Origin: a virus
Lineage: Duplodnaviria; Heunggongvirae; Uroviricota; Caudoviricetes
Length of the DNA stretch: 11,051 nt
IMG/VR virus record: IMGVR_UViG_2671180296_000007
Span: 1 to 11,051 of that record
Direction: 5' to 3' (one strand)
The position numbers were made by a program, and so were the translations under genes. How positions within the stretch are numbered: the stretch's first letter is position 1; every line of letters starts with the position of its first letter. Positions 1 through 8,838 of this stretch are shown piece by piece. Below the pieces are notes generated by a model. It was given only the letters and a program-made list of their open reading frames with translations, did no database searches and was not told the DNA's origin.

Positions 1-1242
1 ATGGCGAGAAAAACACCCCCATTAACCACAGTGCAGATCAAAGCAGCCAGACCAGCGCAAAAGGAGTACACCCTACAGGACGGCGGTGGGCTTTTTCTCC
101 TGGTAAAACCGTCCGGATCAAAACTCTGGCGATTTTCCTACTACCGACCATCGGACAAAAAAAGAATATTGCTGAGTTTTGGATCGCTTGAAGATGTTTC
201 CCTGGCTGATGCCAGAAAACGCCGTAGCGAGTACAGGACGTTAATCAGTGCCGGAACTGACCCGCAGGACCATGAGAAGAAAAAACGAGAGGCAGAGGCC
301 CGAAGACAAGGGAACACGTTCGAAAATGTGGCGGCGGCATGGTACCAGGTGAAAATCAGCCAGAATCTGGCCCCCAACACGATTAAAGACATCTGGCGTT
401 CGCTGGATAAATATGTATTCCCGTTCATCGGCAACACGCCAATAGATACCCTCACTGCCCGAAGGTTCGTTGAGGTGCTTACACCCATCAAGGAGCGCGG
501 CAACCTGGAAACACTCAAGCGGGTTTTACAGCGCGTTAATGAGGTAATGGATTACGCCGCCAACAGTGGGCTGATTGATGCCAATCCGGCTATGAATGTG
601 CGTAAGGCGTTCCCCTCCCCTGTAAAAAAACATATGCCAACAATCCGCCCCGAACAGTTGCCGGAGCTTATGCAGGCTTTATCCGTATCAGCAACAGAAC
701 GGCAGACCAGATTACTGATTGAATGGCAGCTACTGACTGTAACCCGTCCGGTTGAAGCATCGTCAGCACGCTGGGAAGAAATCGACATGGACGCGCAACA
801 ATGGACGATCCCCGCCGGACGCATGAAGATGCGGCGTGATCACGTTATCCCGCTTTGTAGTCAGGCTATGGCGGTACTGGAGGCCATGAAGCCAATCAGC
901 CACCACCGCGAGCACGTTTTCCCTAGCCTGAAAGACCCACGGCAGCCTATGAACAGCCAGACCGCCAACGCAGCATTGCGGCGAATGGGATTCGCTGGCG
1001 TGCTGGTGTCTCATGGATTACGCGCCATATTCAGCACAGCAGCGAACGAGGAAGGATTCGAGCCGGACGTAATCGAGGCCGCACTCGCACACGTGGACAC
1101 GAACGAGGTAAGGCGAGCATATAACCGAAGTAACTACCTGGAAAAGCGCGTGGTGCTTATGCGCTGGTGGGGGGAATTTGTAGAGGCCGCAGCAACCGGA
1201 GTGACCATAGCCAGTGGTAAAAGGGGTATCCGTGCCGTGTAA
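1..1242 (+). CDS. int: Tyrosine recombinase / phage integrase, P4-type
   Basis: Full ORF of 413 aa. The N-terminus (KEYTLQDGGGLFLLVKPSGSKLWRFSYY) is typical of the P4-integrase N-terminal domain, and the C-terminal half has the recombinase-like HGLRAIFST region and a tyrosine near the C-terminus (RRAYNRSNYLEKR). Recognised from family knowledge, not searched. Confidence 0.9.
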   Translation: MARKTPPLTTVQIKAARPAQKEYTLQDGGGLFLLVKPSGSKLWRFSYYRPSDKKRILLSFGSLEDVSLADARKRRSEYRTLISAGTDPQDHEKKKREAEARRQGNTFENVAAAWYQVKISQNLAPNTIKDIWRSLDKYVFPFIGNTPIDTLTARRFVEVLTPIKERGNLETLKRVLQRVNEVMDYAANSGLIDANPAMNVRKAFPSPVKKHMPTIRPEQLPELMQALSVSATERQTRLLIEWQLLTVTRPVEASSARWEEIDMDAQQWTIPAGRMKMRRDHVIPLCSQAMAVLEAMKPISHHREHVFPSLKDPRQPMNSQTANAALRRMGFAGVLVSHGLRAIFSTAANEEGFEPDVIEAALAHVDTNEVRRAYNRSNYLEKRVVLMRWWGEFVEAAATGVTIASGKRGIRAV

Positions 1243-1756: not shown

Positions 1757-1963
1757 GTGGAAACAATCAGAAAAATTCTTACCCGTCAGGAAGTAAAAAA
1801 TATTCTGCGCATCAAGGCAGACAGTTCGCTACAGGACATGATCAACGCCGGAAAATTCCCGAAAGGCTTCAAAATCGGTCTGCGCCGTGTTGGCTGGTAT
1901 GAAGATGAAGTGCTGGCCTGGCTGAAAGAGCGCGAGGAAGAAGCGCGCGGAACGGCTGCGTAA
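1757..1963 (+). CDS. alpA: AlpA-family DNA-binding regulator (phage transcriptional regulator / excisionase-like)
   Basis: 68 aa with GTG start. Pattern LTRQEV..IL.I...S..DMINAGKFPKGFKIG.RRVGWYEDEVLAWL fits the AlpA signature. Position directly after int is the canonical P4/PICI arrangement. Confidence 0.8.
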   Translation: METIRKILTRQEVKNILRIKADSSLQDMINAGKFPKGFKIGLRRVGWYEDEVLAWLKEREEEARGTAA

Positions 1964-2110
1964 TGGTGTGAGGCGTAACGCGATGAACATAACAAAAAGC
2001 GCCCCGTTGCCGGAGCGCCCTTGCGAACAATTAACCTGCTGCGAAAAAAATGGATCAGTGCAGTGGAATTATATCAACCGTGTGACGAAGCGCCACAATT
2101 GCCGGATAAC

Positions 2111-2142
2111 AGGCAAAACAAAGGCCACCCGCTACGGTGGCC
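2111..2142 (-). terminator. Putative rho-independent terminator for the minus-strand small gene
   Basis: Stem ggccacc (2123-2129) / ggtggcc (2136-2142) with a 6-nt loop. On the minus strand it is followed by TTTGTTTTGCCT. Confidence 0.4.
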
Positions 2143-2245
2143 CCTCGACACAAGCTACACGTTATCCCCAACGCATGAGCATAGCCAACAATGCCACATT
2201 TGCGGCTGGTGGGCAAAGCGTAACCGGAAAAAAATTCCGGTGGAG

Positions 2246-2425
2246 CTACTCCTGCTCTTTGGCCTTGCGGCGCTGGCGGCGTTTGATCTCGCCGCGCATG
2301 GCTGCACTTATAAACTGCCCTGTACTTTCGCCTTCTTCTTTCACGTTTTCCATGCCTTCAATAATTTCATGGGCAATACGTGCAGTTACAGATTGTGATT
2401 TTGCATTCTTTGGACCTGTTGCCAT
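2246..2425 (-). CDS. Small basic-tailed protein (59 aa), putative transcriptional regulator of the divergent switch
   Basis: Start set at the internal ATG (2425) because a perfect AAGGAG lies 5 nt upstream on the minus strand. Sequence MATGPKNAKSQSVTARIAHEIIEG...KRRQRRKAKEQE. Divergent from the Icd-like operon with shared repeated operators. Function inferred from context only. Confidence 0.5.
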   Translation of the reverse strand: MATGPKNAKSQSVTARIAHEIIEGMENVKEEGESTGQFISAAMRGEIKRRQRRKAKEQE

Positions 2426-2445
2426 GTCTAACTCCTTATGTTTTT

Positions 2446-2540
2446 GGTGTAAGACAATATACACGAAAAAAAATTATTTTGAAGGGTTGACGTGTAAGAC
2501 ACTATTATTTTACATTGTGTCTTACACCTTGTTGATACAA
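2446..2540. promoter_or_regulatory. Divergent promoter/operator region with three copies of TGTAAGACAC
   Basis: Direct copies at 2447-2456 and 2492-2502; inverted copy at 2517-2527, giving a perfect 11-bp inverted repeat with 14-bp spacer. Candidate -35 TTGACG (2487-2492) and -10 TACATT (2511-2516) for the + operon. Candidate minus-strand -35 TTCAAA / -10 TATATT overlap the operator copy at 2447-2456. Confidence 0.45.
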
Positions 2541-2624
2541 GGTGCAGAAACGACGAAACCCGGCAGTGCGCTAACACTAACCGGGCTTCTAACCACCAAC
2601 GATAACGAGAGTATCGAGGTAGCT

Positions 2625-3239
2625 ATGTTAAATCATACCATACACCCGCAAGGGCGGGACTCGCACAACCTGAATAAATATATCTGGCGTTTTATCGCCC
2701 TGAGCACAGCACAACCGCGCGTGATTACCATTGAGGCCACCAGCGAACAGGAAGCACGCCAGAAAAACCAGTTGATCGCCATTGCCAGCCAGGGCTATGA
2801 TTTATCCGCACCAGCAAAATCTGGTGCCGGGATTGGCGTCCTGGTATTTAACGAAGCGCACAACACGCGCCCTGCGTGTTTTTTTGTGCCGGATAGTCAC
2901 ACCTTATCAATGGTGGGCTGTATGGGGGCGGAGCAATCCGCGCCGGGTTCTTCGTTAACCGGTTACGCCAACCCTGTACAGTCTACCGCCAGCGAAATTG
3001 GCGTTTCCTGCGGTGGGTTTATTAAACCTAACGAAGAGGCTGCCAACATGGCTACTATCCCTGCCCTCGTACATTCTCAAACTGCCTTTATCTGGCGCTT
3101 TATCATCTTTGGCGCGTCAGAATCCCAAATCATCCACGTAACCGCCTGGACGGAACGCGAAGCGCGTAGTCGTTGCCCGTCCGGTTGTGTTGCTGTATTC
3201 GCCGCCCGTATTCGTCAGGAGGTGCGCCATGTGCAATAA
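2625..3239 (+). CDS. Icd-like (host cell division inhibitor-like) protein with two copies of the Icd motif
   Basis: The track ORF 1968-3239 is trimmed to ATG 2625 (GAGG 6 nt upstream), because the upstream part overlaps the minus-strand gene and the promoter region. Two copies of the motif: YIWRFIALSTAQPRVITIEATSEQEAR (N-terminal) and FIWRFIIFGASESQIIHVTAWTEREAR (C-terminal). Family assignment is from memory of the Icd-like signature. Confidence 0.5.
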   Translation: MLNHTIHPQGRDSHNLNKYIWRFIALSTAQPRVITIEATSEQEARQKNQLIAIASQGYDLSAPAKSGAGIGVLVFNEAHNTRPACFFVPDSHTLSMVGCMGAEQSAPGSSLTGYANPVQSTASEIGVSCGGFIKPNEEAANMATIPALVHSQTAFIWRFIIFGASESQIIHVTAWTEREARSRCPSGCVAVFAARIRQEVRHVQ

Positions 3240-3777: not shown

Positions 3778-4077
3778 ATGAAACTTAAATATTCTGGCTT
3801 AACTGCCAGTGGCAACACTCACCCTAAATTTACGCGCGGTGATATTTACCGCGACCAGTACGGCGGCACGGTAATGATTAAGGGCGTGGCGGGACGGTGC
3901 GTAACTTACCGCCGTGAAGGTTACGAATATGATTGCGTGATGCCTGTTTATCAGTTCCGGCGTGATTTTTCTCTGGTACAGGCAGCGCCCCGCAGTAAAC
4001 CAACCAGCAGGGAGAAAGCACGCGCCAATATTCAGAAGATGAAAACCATGATTAAAGGATTCAGGGGTAAAAAATGA
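3778..4077 (+). CDS. Hypothetical small protein (99 aa), translationally coupled to the primase
   Basis: GGAG 3762-3765 upstream of ATG 3778. The stop overlaps the primase start in an ATGA motif (4074-4077). Confidence 0.6.
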   Translation: MKLKYSGLTASGNTHPKFTRGDIYRDQYGGTVMIKGVAGRCVTYRREGYEYDCVMPVYQFRRDFSLVQAAPRSKPTSREKARANIQKMKTMIKGFRGKK

Positions 4078-5828
4078 AACTGGCACCGAACGTAAAACAG
4101 CAGTCACGCGGCATAAAACACAAAGAAACAGAAGTCATTATTTTTGCGGGTAGTGATGCCTGGTCACACGCGAAACAATGGCAGGAACATGATGCGCGTA
4201 TGGCCGGAGATAATGAGCCTCCTGTGTGGCTTGGGGAGCAGCAGCTATCCGAACTGGATAATCTGCAAATTGTGCCGGAAGGCCGAAAATCAGCACGCAT
4301 ATACAGGGCCGGATATCTTGCGCCAGTAATGATAAAGGCGATTGGCCAGAAGCTGGCGGCGGCAGGCGTACAGGATGCAAATTTTTACCCTGATGGTATG
4401 CACGGTCAGAAGGTGGAGAACTGGAGCGAATATCTGGCCCGTGAGCGCCAGAATCTTTCTGATGGTCTGGTCATTGAGCTTCCGGTAATGCAAAAGGCGC
4501 AACTTTCGCAGATGGCGGACAGTGAGCGCGCACAGATGCTTGCTGGTCGATTTGATGGCGTTTGTGTGCATCCGGAAAGTGAAATCGTTCACGTATGGCG
4601 CGGCGGGGTATGGTGTCCGGTCAGCACAATGGAACTTAGCCGCGAAATGGTGGCGATCTATTCAGAGCACAGGGCCACTTTCAGCAAGCGCGTAATCAAT
4701 AACGCCGTGGAAGCGTTAAAAGTTATTGCCGAACCAATGGGCGAGCCGTCCGGCGATTTGTTGCCGTTCGCCAATGGTGCGCTTGACCTGAAAACGGGGG
4801 AATTTTCCCCGCACACGCCGGAGAACTGGATCACCACGCACAACGGCATTGAGTACACGCCACCAGCACCTGGGGAGAACATCCGCGATAACGCGCCAAA
4901 CTTTCATAAATGGCTTGAGCACGCAGCCGGAAAAGACCCGCGCAAGATGATGCGTATATGTGCCGCGCTGTACATGATTATGGCGAACCGGTACGACTGG
5001 CAGATGTTTATTGAGGCCACCGGAGACGGCGGGAGCGGTAAAAGTACATTCACGCACATAGCCAGCCTTCTGGCAGGGAAACAGAACACGGTGAGCGCGG
5101 AGATGACATCGCTTGATGATGCTGGTGGACGTGCGCAGGTTGTCGGGAGTCGTCTTATCGTCCTGGCTGACCAGCCGAAATATACAGGCGAAGGAACGGG
5201 CATCAAGAAAATCACGGGCGGCGACCCCGTGGAAATAAACCCGAAATATGAGAAGCGTTTTACGGCGGTAATCAGGGCGGTGGTGCTGGCTACCAACAAT
5301 AACCCGATGATATTCACCGAACGGGCCGGAGGTGTGTCACGTCGTCGCGTAATTTTCCGTTTCGACAATATCGTCAGTGAGGCCGAAAAAGACAGGGAGC
5401 TACCGGAAAAGATTGCGGCTGAAATCCCTGTCATTATCCGCCGATTGCTGGCGAACTTTACCGACCCTGAGAAGGCACGGGCTTTACTACTGGAACAGCG
5501 TGACGGTGATGAAGCACTGGCAATAAAGCAACAGACGGATCCGGTTATTGAGTTTTGCCAGTTCCTGAATTTTCTGGAGGAAGCGCGCGGCCTGATGATG
5601 GGTGGCGGTGGTGATTCAGTGAAGTACACGACCAGGAACAGCCTTTATCGCGTCTATCTGGCGTTTATGGCGTACGCAGGCAGGAGCAAACCGCTAAACG
5701 TAAATGACTTTGGCAAGGCTATGAAGCCAGCCGCGAAAGTTTACGGACATGAATATATTACGCGGAAAGTTAAGGGAGTAACGCAGACTAACGCAATAAC
5801 AACAGACGAGTGCGACGCGTTTTTATAA
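4074..5828 (+). CDS. DNA primase/helicase, P4-alpha C-terminal type (D5_N-like domain plus SF3 P-loop NTPase)
   Basis: 584 aa. Walker A GDGGSGKST (about 5018-5046), Walker B-like LIVLADQP, downstream NNNP motif. Overall resemblance to phage/plasmid primase P4-family C-terminal domain proteins (PICI pri-rep type). Confidence 0.85.
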   Translation: MKLAPNVKQQSRGIKHKETEVIIFAGSDAWSHAKQWQEHDARMAGDNEPPVWLGEQQLSELDNLQIVPEGRKSARIYRAGYLAPVMIKAIGQKLAAAGVQDANFYPDGMHGQKVENWSEYLARERQNLSDGLVIELPVMQKAQLSQMADSERAQMLAGRFDGVCVHPESEIVHVWRGGVWCPVSTMELSREMVAIYSEHRATFSKRVINNAVEALKVIAEPMGEPSGDLLPFANGALDLKTGEFSPHTPENWITTHNGIEYTPPAPGENIRDNAPNFHKWLEHAAGKDPRKMMRICAALYMIMANRYDWQMFIEATGDGGSGKSTFTHIASLLAGKQNTVSAEMTSLDDAGGRAQVVGSRLIVLADQPKYTGEGTGIKKITGGDPVEINPKYEKRFTAVIRAVVLATNNNPMIFTERAGGVSRRRVIFRFDNIVSEAEKDRELPEKIAAEIPVIIRRLLANFTDPEKARALLLEQRDGDEALAIKQQTDPVIEFCQFLNFLEEARGLMMGGGGDSVKYTTRNSLYRVYLAFMAYAGRSKPLNVNDFGKAMKPAAKVYGHEYITRKVKGVTQTNAITTDECDAFL

Positions 5829-7229: not shown

Positions 7230-7436
7230 ATGGCTGAAGAGAAAAAAGGCGGTGTTTCGGTGTACATAAGCCCCGAAATCGTGGAGGTGCTCAAGCAGCG
7301 CCACAAAAAAAACTATGAGGCTGGCGTGGCGGCTGGACTGGATCCGCTGATGACGCCGGAGCCGTCGATAGGTTCACTTGTACGCTCTTATTTACTTGCG
7401 GCGCTTGGGATGCATAAAAATTATGGGGGTGAATAA
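7230..7436 (+). CDS. Hypothetical small protein (68 aa), first gene of the capsid operon
   Basis: AAGAGGAA (7213-7220) upstream of ATG 7230. Stop overlaps the capsid gene start (TAATG). No family recognised. Confidence 0.55.
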   Translation: MAEEKKGGVSVYISPEIVEVLKQRHKKNYEAGVAAGLDPLMTPEPSIGSLVRSYLLAALGMHKNYGGE

Positions 7437-8491
7437 TGGCAGGCAAAGCAACGGCACTTAACACTAACCAGCTTTTCGCGTACCTGAATCGCGGGGATAT
7501 TGCGGAATTTAAATTCAGTCCGCTGTTTACCACGCTGTTTTTCCCGAACGTGGCGACATTCAACACCCAAAGCATCATGCTGGACACCCTGGACATTGAA
7601 GAGGTTACGATGTCGGCGTTTTGTTCGCCTATGGTGGGTAGTCAGGTCCAGCGCGATAAAGGGTACGAAACCAGCACGATTAAACCTGGATACATGAAGC
7701 CGAAGCACGAAATCGATCCAACGAAAACCATCATGCGTATGGCTGGAGAAGATCCGGCACAGCTTAATGACCCAACCTATCGCCGTATGCGCCTGATTAC
7801 TGGCAACATGCGCCGCCAGATAAACGCGATTAAAGCGCGCGTGGAATGGCTGGCGGTGAATGCGGTAACGACCGGAAAAAACATCATTGAGGGCGAAGGC
7901 ATAGAACGCTATGAAATCGACTGGAAGATACCGGAAAAAAACATCATAGAGCAGGCCAAAGGCCGTAAATGGTCCGAGCAGGACAAAGAAACCCACGATC
8001 CAATCTATGATATCGAGCTTTATGCGGATCAAGCAGGTTGCCCCTCCAACGTCATGATCATGGGCGCTGAGGTATGGCGAACGTTACGCAGCTTTAAAAA
8101 ATTCCGCGAACTGTACGATCTTTCCCGTGGTTCAGAGTCCTCCGCAGAGCTGGCCTGTAAAAACCTGGGCGAAGTGGTGAGCTTTAAAGGATATCTGGGC
8201 GATATTGCCCTTATCGTCTATTCCGGCAAATACACTGACAGCGACGGCACCGAAAAATATTTCCTTGAGCCTGATTTGCTGGTCCTGGGCAACACCAACA
8301 ATAAAGGGCTGGTGGCCTATGGTGCGATTATGGATCAGGAAGCGGTCAGAACGGGCGCAACGCAAAACATGTTTTACCCGAAAAACTGGATTGAGGACGG
8401 CGATCCGGCGATTGAGTACGTGCAGACGCACAGCGCACCGCAGCCGGTTCCGGCAGATATTCGCAAATTTGTTACCGTCAAAATTGGTTAA
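7436..8491 (+). CDS. Major capsid protein, lambda gpE family
   Basis: 351 aa. Matches to lambda E recalled from memory: FKFSPLFTTLFF (lambda FKFDPLFLRLFF), PGYMKPKHEI (PGYVKPKHEV), DPTYRRMR (DPAYRRRR), SFKGYLGDIALIVYSGKY (SYKGMYGDVAIVVYSGQY), YPKNW, and full-length collinearity. GGGGG RBS 6 nt upstream. Confidence 0.9.
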   Translation: MAGKATALNTNQLFAYLNRGDIAEFKFSPLFTTLFFPNVATFNTQSIMLDTLDIEEVTMSAFCSPMVGSQVQRDKGYETSTIKPGYMKPKHEIDPTKTIMRMAGEDPAQLNDPTYRRMRLITGNMRRQINAIKARVEWLAVNAVTTGKNIIEGEGIERYEIDWKIPEKNIIEQAKGRKWSEQDKETHDPIYDIELYADQAGCPSNVMIMGAEVWRTLRSFKKFRELYDLSRGSESSAELACKNLGEVVSFKGYLGDIALIVYSGKYTDSDGTEKYFLEPDLLVLGNTNNKGLVAYGAIMDQEAVRTGATQNMFYPKNWIEDGDPAIEYVQTHSAPQPVPADIRKFVTVKIG

Positions 8492-8502
8492 CGGGGGATT
8501 CT

Positions 8503-8838
8503 ATGGACACTCCATACATTGAGTTATTTGCAGGCAGTCAGCAGGTTGCCACGACGCTGGTACATTTTGCCGCTGATGCTGGCGTTATTCAGGAATTTAC
8601 CCCGCTGATGCTGGCGGACAATGGCGAATTTAAGCCGTGGGATGGTCAGGAATCTGGCAAGGCTGTTTATCTGACGGCGTATCCCGTGGACACGTCAACG
8701 CAGAAATCAGCACAGTGTTACAAGACGGGGATATTCAATATTGCCGCCGTTAACTGGCCTGAGAGCGTCGACACCGACGCGAAAAAATGTGCCGCCTTTG
8801 CGGGTTCTGGTGTATCTGTTCAGCCGCTGGCGCGATAA
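8503..8838 (+). CDS. Head decoration protein, lambda gpD family
   Basis: 111 aa. TPLMLADNGEFKPWDG and C-terminal YKTGIFNIAAVNWPESVDTDAKKCAAFAGSGVSV parallel lambda D (TPLMLDTSSRKLVAWDG ... [35 protein letters not shown]). Confidence 0.8.
   Translation: MDTPYIELFAGSQQVATTLVHFAADAGVIQEFTPLMLADNGEFKPWDGQESGKAVYLTAYPVDTSTQKSAQCYKTGIFNIAAVNWPESVDTDAKKCAAFAGSGVSVQPLAR

Follow-up and report, generated by a model that had tools for sequence, protein, structure and literature searches.

RHH repressors acting at divergent promoters are already known. In the immI region of phage P22, the RHH repressors Mnt and Arc act at the divergent Pmnt/Pant region, where two proteins and one operator of 17–21 bp, bound by a tetramer, control the phage antirepressor. 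RHH proteins of the CopG type control plasmid rep operons; copG heads the operon that CopG represses, and CopG binds one pseudo-symmetric element. Stl proteins, master repressors of Gram-positive PICIs (SaPIs), are larger, of the HTH type, and are inactivated by helper-phage proteins.

Regarding Gram-negative phage-inducible chromosomal islands (PICIs), the prototype is EcCICFT073. Over-expression of AlpA alone induces this island, and a reporter placed in a downstream ORF requires alpA (PMC6092414). To those who described EcCICFT073, the matter of a global repressor in such islands was ‘unclear’. Immunity RNAs of the P4 seqA/CI type and of the P1 immI type have previously been noted in such islands (PMC10111431).

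Here we analyzed a stretch of 11,051 nucleotides of Caudoviricetes DNA (hereafter, the window), in which a 59-aa gene on the minus strand is divergent from a plus-strand operon. An initial annotation of its letters had proposed that this small gene and a set of repeated motifs form the switch of the island.

Organization of the window

The window runs from an integrase gene through alpA and the 59-aa gene into the plus-strand operon, which comprises the Icd-like/Ash ORF and the genes for a phrog_2512 protein, a DUF4222 protein, a P4-type primase and SSB; genes for a lambda-E-like capsid protein and a decoration protein come after SSB (Table 1). Gene for gene, this organization is that of EcCICFT073. 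Judged by gene content, the window also has the attributes of EcCICFT073-type PICIs, with int, alpA and the P4-type primase co-directional, a size of ~10–15 kb and a helper-related capsid gene. Between 91 and 95% of the window is present in two E. coli genomes, and some part of it is matched in 2442 of 5426 complete genomes.

At 7230–8838, the genes for a 68-aa ORF, a 351-aa capsid protein and a 111-aa decoration protein have the order and lengths of c1499/c1500 and their neighbor in EcCICFT073, where those genes were reported to be dispensable for transfer (PMC6092414). In Rfam searches, the int-alpA RNA motif (RF02996) was found between int and alpA in the related loci L008, L010, L046, L061 and L065; the window gave no match to it at E values up to 1.

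Between alpA and the 59-aa gene lie two terminator-like hairpins, both with a T-run on the minus strand and with none on the plus strand. A perfect palindrome (CCGGAAAAAAATTCCGG, 2225–2241) directly follows the stop codon of the 59-aa gene; we did not score it as a terminator because it is too weak and its flanking T residues are too sparse.

Table 1. Coordinates of genes, candidate regulatory elements and RNA matches in the window, with the predicted parts of the 59-aa protein
Feature	Position	Strand	Details
Integrase gene	1–1242		
AlpA gene	1757–1963		
Terminator-like hairpin with T-run	1995–2022	-	second of the two
Terminator-like hairpin with T-run	2120–2145	-	~100 nt past the 59-aa gene
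59-aa gene	2246–2425	-	ATG start; MATGPKNAKSQSVTARIAHEIIEGMENVKEEGESTGQFISAAMRGEIKRRQRRKAKEQE
Shine-Dalgarno sequence	2432–2437	-	AAGGAG, 6 nt ahead of the ATG; ‘aggag’ kept in 57 unique upstream regions
Candidate operator O1	2447–2457		GTGTAAGACAA; TTGTCTTACAC on the strand of the gene
Predicted -10 of the 59-aa gene	2456–2461	-	TATATT; TATACT in most relatives
Candidate -35 of the 59-aa gene	2478–2483	-	TTCAAA; 16 nt spacer; weak or absent in most relatives
Predicted -35 of the early (Icd/replication) promoter	2487–2492	+	TTGACG; 18 nt spacer to the -10
Candidate operator O2	2492–2502		GTGTAAGACAC
Predicted -10 of the early promoter	2511–2516	+	TACATT
Candidate operator O3	2517–2527		GTGTCTTACAC; inverted relative to O2
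Structured leader of the early transcript	2525–2624	+	predicted hairpins 2525–2544, 2555–2589 and 2604–2619; conserved TCTAACCA
Icd-like/Ash ORF	2625–3239	+	204 aa; first gene of the controlled operon; contains the isrK and C4 RNAs
Sigma-70-like site	2772–2801		TTGATC-18-TATGAT
c4-a1b1 (Rfam match)	2795–2847		
isrK (Rfam match)	2808–2884		own terminator
C4 (Rfam match)	2906–2993		
P4-type primase gene	4074–5828	+	
59-aa protein, predicted parts	residues 1–59		N-terminal arm 1–9; beta-strand ~10–17; helix A 19–28; helix B 35–58

A selected gene of the YlcI/YnfO family

The textbook RBS ascribed to the small gene is indeed present. A mechanical ORF list gave a longer version of 72 aa starting from a GTG at 2464, and we preferred the 59-aa start because all homologues begin with MATG. 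For comparison, we collected 80 loci from species-representative Enterobacterales genomes, oriented on the 59-aa gene. The ORF is neither unconserved nor disrupted among its relatives: clustering at 90% leaves 113 homologues, every one from Enterobacterales, and the gene is intact in all 80 loci, which come from many genera of this order. With a median dN/dS of 0.25 over 813 pairs, indicative of purifying selection, the comparison identifies the ORF as a real, selected gene. The family is small and narrow, since it has only 88 representatives among 1.84 billion proteins. A tblastn search of the protein against 50,697 GenBank phage records gave no match, so at that level of similarity the gene does not count as a bona fide phage gene.

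The initial annotation had judged the protein to be unlike recognized regulators, and here we disagree, as it matches the YlcI/YnfO family (E = 1.2e-18). The match to NCBIfam model NF041551 scores 66.8 bits against a cut-off of 30, with residues 9–50 covering the entire 42-position model; PGAP names the E. coli orthologues YlcI/YnfO family protein, and phrog_949, which has no function assigned, also matches. A Pfam scan gave no match for the 59-aa protein. Among 54 family members compared with the Pfam RHH models, one matched RHH_1 (E = 0.0093) and one RHH_5 (E = 0.09), both non-significant; a PDB profile search with the family found no sequence relative, and sequence homology of the protein to Arc or Mnt was not detectable. 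Judging by titles and abstracts, the literature on YlcI, YnfO and DUF3950 holds incidental mentions, with none on the function of the family, and the PICI papers that we consulted do not mention the 59-aa protein.

Structure prediction had been suggested as a check. From the single sequence, AlphaFold gave one long, uninformative helix, and we used an alignment-based monomer model instead. This model consists of a beta-strand followed by two helices, i.e. an RHH fold, and it matches RHH repressors and antitoxins, with a CopG-family protein as the best fold match. Helix B carries an invariant basic stretch, EIKRRQR(K/R), whose possible roles are contacts to the DNA backbone or a partner-binding surface. 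We therefore describe the protein as a member of the YlcI/YnfO family that belongs to the RHH superfamily by predicted fold, since the link to RHH models at the sequence level is non-significant.

Longer variants of the family (~100 aa) occur in E. coli Nissle 1917 (L113, 3124–3429) and in loci L060, L073, L074 and L076. In place of the basic tail, they have an additional helical segment with a second basic motif at its end; this segment may be an added oligomerization module.

Three candidate operators over two divergent promoters

The motif TGTAAGACA has exact matches at 2448–2456 (+), 2493–2501 (+) and 2518–2526 (-), within less than 80 bp, and none elsewhere in the 11 kb. By chance, 0.06 matches would be expected, and three or more appeared in none of 200 shuffles. 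The extended sites are 11-mers of the form GTG-N5-CAC, two direct (O1 and O2) and one inverted (O3), as originally reported. So are their overlap with candidate promoter elements on both strands and the divergence of the small gene from the Icd-like operon (Table 1).

O2 occupies the first 10 nt of the spacer of the predicted early promoter (about -31 to -21), and O3 lies directly past its -10, over the predicted start (about -6 to +5). O1, whose first base differs from the GTG consensus, covers the last 2 nt of the predicted -10 of the 59-aa gene together with the predicted start (about -8 to +3); relative to this start, the center of O2 is at about -48. As judged by sequence, O2 and O3 would sit at classic positions for repression of the divergent promoter, and O1 for autoregulation.

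This layout recurs in the relatives. Three sites of the GTG-N5-CAC form are found in 69 of the 80 loci, as 11-mers at -32, -77 and -99 to -112 from the ATG, and the three copies within one locus are identical or near-identical. O1, at -32, always reads xTG-N5-CAC, with the core of O2. O3 is direct or inverted and 22, 23, 25, 26 or 35 bp away from O2, a variation in spacing and orientation that does not allow co-operative binding to be assumed. Across 57 unique upstream regions, the GTG/CAC ends, GTATACTG and TTGAnG-17-TAannT are conserved, and the N5 cores are free to vary. GTATACTG, the gene’s own predicted -10, is near-invariant and overlaps the first two bases of O1. TTGAnG is conserved beside O2, with TAannT 17 nt after it, and the family consensus at the -35 position of the 59-aa gene is merely T-rich. 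Within the window’s own class, the three sites are invariant and the spacers between them vary freely. We also considered extra copies of the operator elsewhere in the islands and rejected them: each locus’s own site, with up to one mismatch, gave 7 further matches in 515 kb against ~8 expected by chance. Hence, the comparison lends good support to a regulatory architecture of three putative sites and two predicted promoters.

The position of the sites bears on one further reading of the fold. Many RHH proteins are antitoxins of toxin-antitoxin pairs or serve as partition or packaging adaptors; for the 59-aa protein, we find such a role barely tenable. In the window, no partner ORF exists, the stop at 2246 is followed by a hairpin and terminator-like structures, and the sites lie right on promoter elements. 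Past the gene, EcCICFT073 (L111, 10243–10416, minus strand), and two other E. coli islands, L001 (9347–9544, minus strand) and L002, do have a second small ORF of 57–65 aa, with a basic N-terminus and the motif ERFAPC[AS]FALE[QK]FLKEYR; neither the window nor any of the 80 species-representative loci has this ORF. Finding no conserved ORF adjacent past the stop, we rejected membership in a type II toxin-antitoxin system.

Operator cores track a predicted beta-strand

The N5 core falls into 21 classes that go along with the identity of residues 12 and 14 in the predicted beta-strand (Table 2); the remaining classes follow the same pairing pattern as those tabulated. When the information on operator class above a shuffle null was calculated for each alignment column, columns 14 (1.43 bits) and 12 (1.23 bits) gave the highest values, and the equally variable columns 27 and 54–59 gave 0.1–0.3 bits. 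Because the gene and the sites are adjacent, shared descent inflates this co-variation. The code is not one-to-one either: K12/S14 occurs with two cores, and TCGGA with two strands. R16 is invariant, and residues 12, 14 and 16 alternate with hydrophobic or small residues at 13, 15 and 17, a pattern that in the model would be that of an RHH strand with outward residues reading bases. Changes in codons 11–15 are mostly non-synonymous (6976 vs 1473 synonymous), and those in codons 46–53, the invariant basic stretch, mostly synonymous (5739 vs 935 non-synonymous).

Table 2. Predicted strand (residues 10–17) and candidate site in operator classes of the family
Strand	Site
SQSVTARI / SQSITVRV	GTGTAAGACAC
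SQMTTVRI	GTGAAATACAC
SKKLEARV	GTGTCAGCCAC
SQQLNARF	GTGAATCGCAC
SLQVSVRL	GTGAACACCAC
SQALKARV / SQSLKSRV	GTGTGGCCCAC
SKRFDVRV	GTGTCGGACAC

We then reversed the comparison by choosing IMG/VR contigs by their operator pair alone and reading the neighboring ORF. The pair of the window’s class was found in 27 contigs, 26 of which were analyzed. A YlcI ORF was reported in 20 of these, always with S12/T14, and for the remaining 6 the ORF reported was the Icd-like one on the opposite side; S12/T14 is retained while the remainder of the protein falls to ~75% identity. The GTGTCAGCCAC pair was accompanied by SKKLEARV in 19 of 20 contigs, the 20th having no family ORF within reach, and the GTGTATTTCAC/GTGAAATACAC pair by SQMTTVRI in all 32. 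EcCICFT073 (SQALKARV) has GTGGGCCACAC twice in the promoter region, as predicted from Pseudocitrobacter and Enterobacter loci, and sites of the TGTAAGACA type are present with the long variant of Nissle 1917 (S12/T14). Taken together, these comparisons show, at the level of sequence, an allele-specific pairing of predicted strand and core.

Probable exchange of a specificity cassette between the window and EcCICFT073

EcCICFT073 carries the module under a late-added locus tag, C_RS30120, with a specificity that differs from that of the window and with a degenerate O1. Over the last 16 codons of the 59-aa gene, the two islands show 100% identity, and a second flank, which begins at the end of the leader and takes in the Icd-like ORF, is ~97% identical. 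Between these flanks lie the N-terminal 43 codons, the operators and the hairpins of the leader, where identity is far lower. A mosaic boundary inside the gene is seen when window positions 2246–2625 are compared with 10474–10855 of L111 (EcCICFT073), which suggests that recombination at conserved flanks swaps specificity cassettes.

One could argue that the repeats are bound by another factor, such as AlpA, the Icd-like protein or a protein of the host or the helper phage, with the small ORF unrelated to them. AlpA is a DNA-binding activator encoded nearby (PMC6092414), and adjoining features are co-inherited, so that linkage alone could mimic co-variation. Several observations nevertheless make a different binder very unlikely. 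Variation of the cores goes with variation at those positions of the 59-aa protein that are predicted to read DNA, and the ORF of this protein is the only protein gene constantly adjoining the sites. The window’s operator and its S/T strand also occur in Xenorhabdus loci that have an unrelated or undetectable AlpA and very different integrases, and the operators of the window and EcCICFT073 differ although their Icd-like genes are ~97% identical; on these two grounds we rejected AlpA and the Icd-like protein as determinants of specificity. A host factor, for its part, is unable to explain 21 core classes.

The early leader and an accessory RNA layer

Among relatives, 7 of the 19 pairs predicted in the leader of the early transcript show compensatory changes. 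The first hairpin of this leader takes in the right end of O3 and the last lies just ahead of the ribosome-binding site. A sub-threshold Rfam match to symR overlaps the leader on the opposite strand.

Three Rfam RNAs, c4-a1b1, isrK and C4, lie inside the Icd-like/Ash ORF. A sigma-70-like site (Table 1) ends 7 nt ahead of the isrK match. By sequence, the segment 2772–2993 looks like an internal immunity unit of the P4 PLE/seqA/CI type. In the window, the isrK/C4 RNAs would add a second control layer, which is also present in the closest relative, L001. These RNAs are absent from EcCICFT073, from the cf-PICI-like L002 and from 17 diverse relatives, all of which have the RHH module, and we therefore rejected them as its essential partner. 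The RNA layer is thus accessory, and the protein module is the conserved part.

A proposed single-protein repression module

We think it likely that the 59-aa protein, a predicted RHH protein, represses the early/replication operon in an allele-specific manner and regulates its own synthesis; both its binding and its role in induction we infer from the comparative data and the predicted fold. A dimer would bind each 11-bp GTG-TAAGA-CAC site through the N-terminal beta-strand, chiefly with residues 12 and 14, and the invariant R16 probably reads the GTG/CAC ends. Occupancy of O2, in the spacer, and of O3, at the start site, would block RNA polymerase at the early promoter, which serves Icd-like/Ash, DUF4222, primase and SSB, and the replication operon of the island would be kept silent. 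Occupancy of O1, over the gene’s own -10, would limit synthesis of the repressor; O1 would be the weaker site because of its non-G first base, which comes from the overlap with TATACT. O2, at about -48 from the gene’s own start and beside a poor -35, may stimulate the repressor’s own promoter, and the roles of O1 and O2 together would give a lambda-OR-like logic with one protein. The module would be an exchangeable specificity cassette, with at least 21 operator classes among PICI-type and related satellites.

The proposal of a divergent repression switch comparable to cI/cro stands in one part: three candidate operators over two divergent promoters, together with a small putative DNA-binding protein, are borne out by the comparison. 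A two-protein cI/cro toggle is not, since only one regulator is evident. The further idea that this is the derepression switch of the island needs narrowing, because AlpA over-expression alone induces EcCICFT073 (PMC6092414); the repressor is thus not the sole gate, and would be at most one control layer. More speculatively, AlpA-driven upstream transcripts could run antisense through the repressor gene into the operon, as the only terminator-like hairpins between alpA and the gene have minus-strand T-runs, and lift or bypass repression. Such read-through would fit both the induction by AlpA alone and the alpA-dependent downstream reporter (PMC6092414).

The same three sites could serve a different purpose, with the protein acting after induction as a CopG/Cro-like replication damper that sets copy number, or providing immunity against satellites of the same class. 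The controlled operon contains primase and replication genes of the sort that RHH CopG proteins control in plasmids, AlpA induces EcCICFT073 despite the presence of the gene, and the many specificity classes fit competition between elements. The sequence is compatible with this role or with one in quiescence; the repressor gene’s own promoter, separate from the operon and conserved in all loci, suits constitutive expression when integrated. On balance, we consider the post-induction or immunity role unlikely and retain repression of the early operon as the preferred reading.

In its broadest form, which we put forward tentatively, as a possibility rather than an expectation, the YlcI/YnfO RHH proteins would be the missing repressors of Gram-negative PICIs and cf-PICIs, including EcCICFT073. 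They would shut the replication promoter when the island is integrated, in at least 21 mutually orthogonal, cassette-swapped classes, and helper-induced AlpA would override them by antisense transcription.

What is new here is an uncharacterized family at the regulatory heart of a very common type of satellite whose describers found no repressor, and apparently a natural series of orthogonal specificities in YlcI/YnfO-type modules. Should the early promoter be repressed by this protein, a second layer would have to be added to the model of how a very common class of E. coli satellites is induced, and island-to-island immunity classes would become a testable idea. Built on one scaffold, the ~20 natural, compact and apparently orthogonal repressor/operator pairs would be of use to synthetic biology as parts and would form a clean data set for RHH-DNA recognition; if the pairing is indeed that of repressor and operator, the series would yield a readable RHH code, strand residues 12 and 14 against the N5 core.

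Comparison with known systems

Within the YlcI/YnfO family, the E. coli K-12 proteins YlcI and YnfO (DUF3950; prophages DLP12 and Qin) share the NF041551 model and the beta-strand/helix pattern. They are distant, with related YnfO-like loci at ~33–40% identity, and are encoded at the cos end of lambdoid prophages instead of in a satellite. K-12 ylcI (L112, 8252–8446) is at the right end of DLP12, divergent from nohD and with a lambda-type cos sequence between the two genes; the three-site layout is not evident upstream of it.

With respect to satellites, the Stl/Rpr regulators of SaPIs are also divergent from the excision/replication operon (PMC6092414), and only this divergent position is shared: the window has a 59-aa RHH protein, and induction of the prototype runs through AlpA (PMC6092414). 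P4 immunity (PLE/PLL, Vis and CI RNA) and the P1/P7 immI c4-icd-ant region find their counterpart in the isrK (seqA-like) and C4 (CI-like) RNAs of the window’s Ash/Icd-like ORF, which come after an AlpA/Vis homologue and ahead of a P4-type primase (PMC10111431). The 59-aa protein sets the window apart from these systems, being without a match in the GenBank phage records. The exchange of a cassette with the Icd-like protein left unchanged resembles lambdoid immunity regions.

Like CopG of pMV158, the protein would be an RHH of ~45–60 aa on the promoter of an operon for replication initiation, and a CopG-family protein is its best fold match. The window’s gene is instead divergent, with its own promoter and three dispersed sites, and there is no sequence relationship between the two. 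Regarding the layout of the sites, it resembles the logic of lambda OR or of P22 Mnt, but would be run by a single protein. By analogy, the closest functional counterpart is P22 Mnt/Arc at immI, from which the window differs in having one protein and three separate 11-bp GTG-N5-CAC sites, placed at the Icd-like and replication genes of a satellite.
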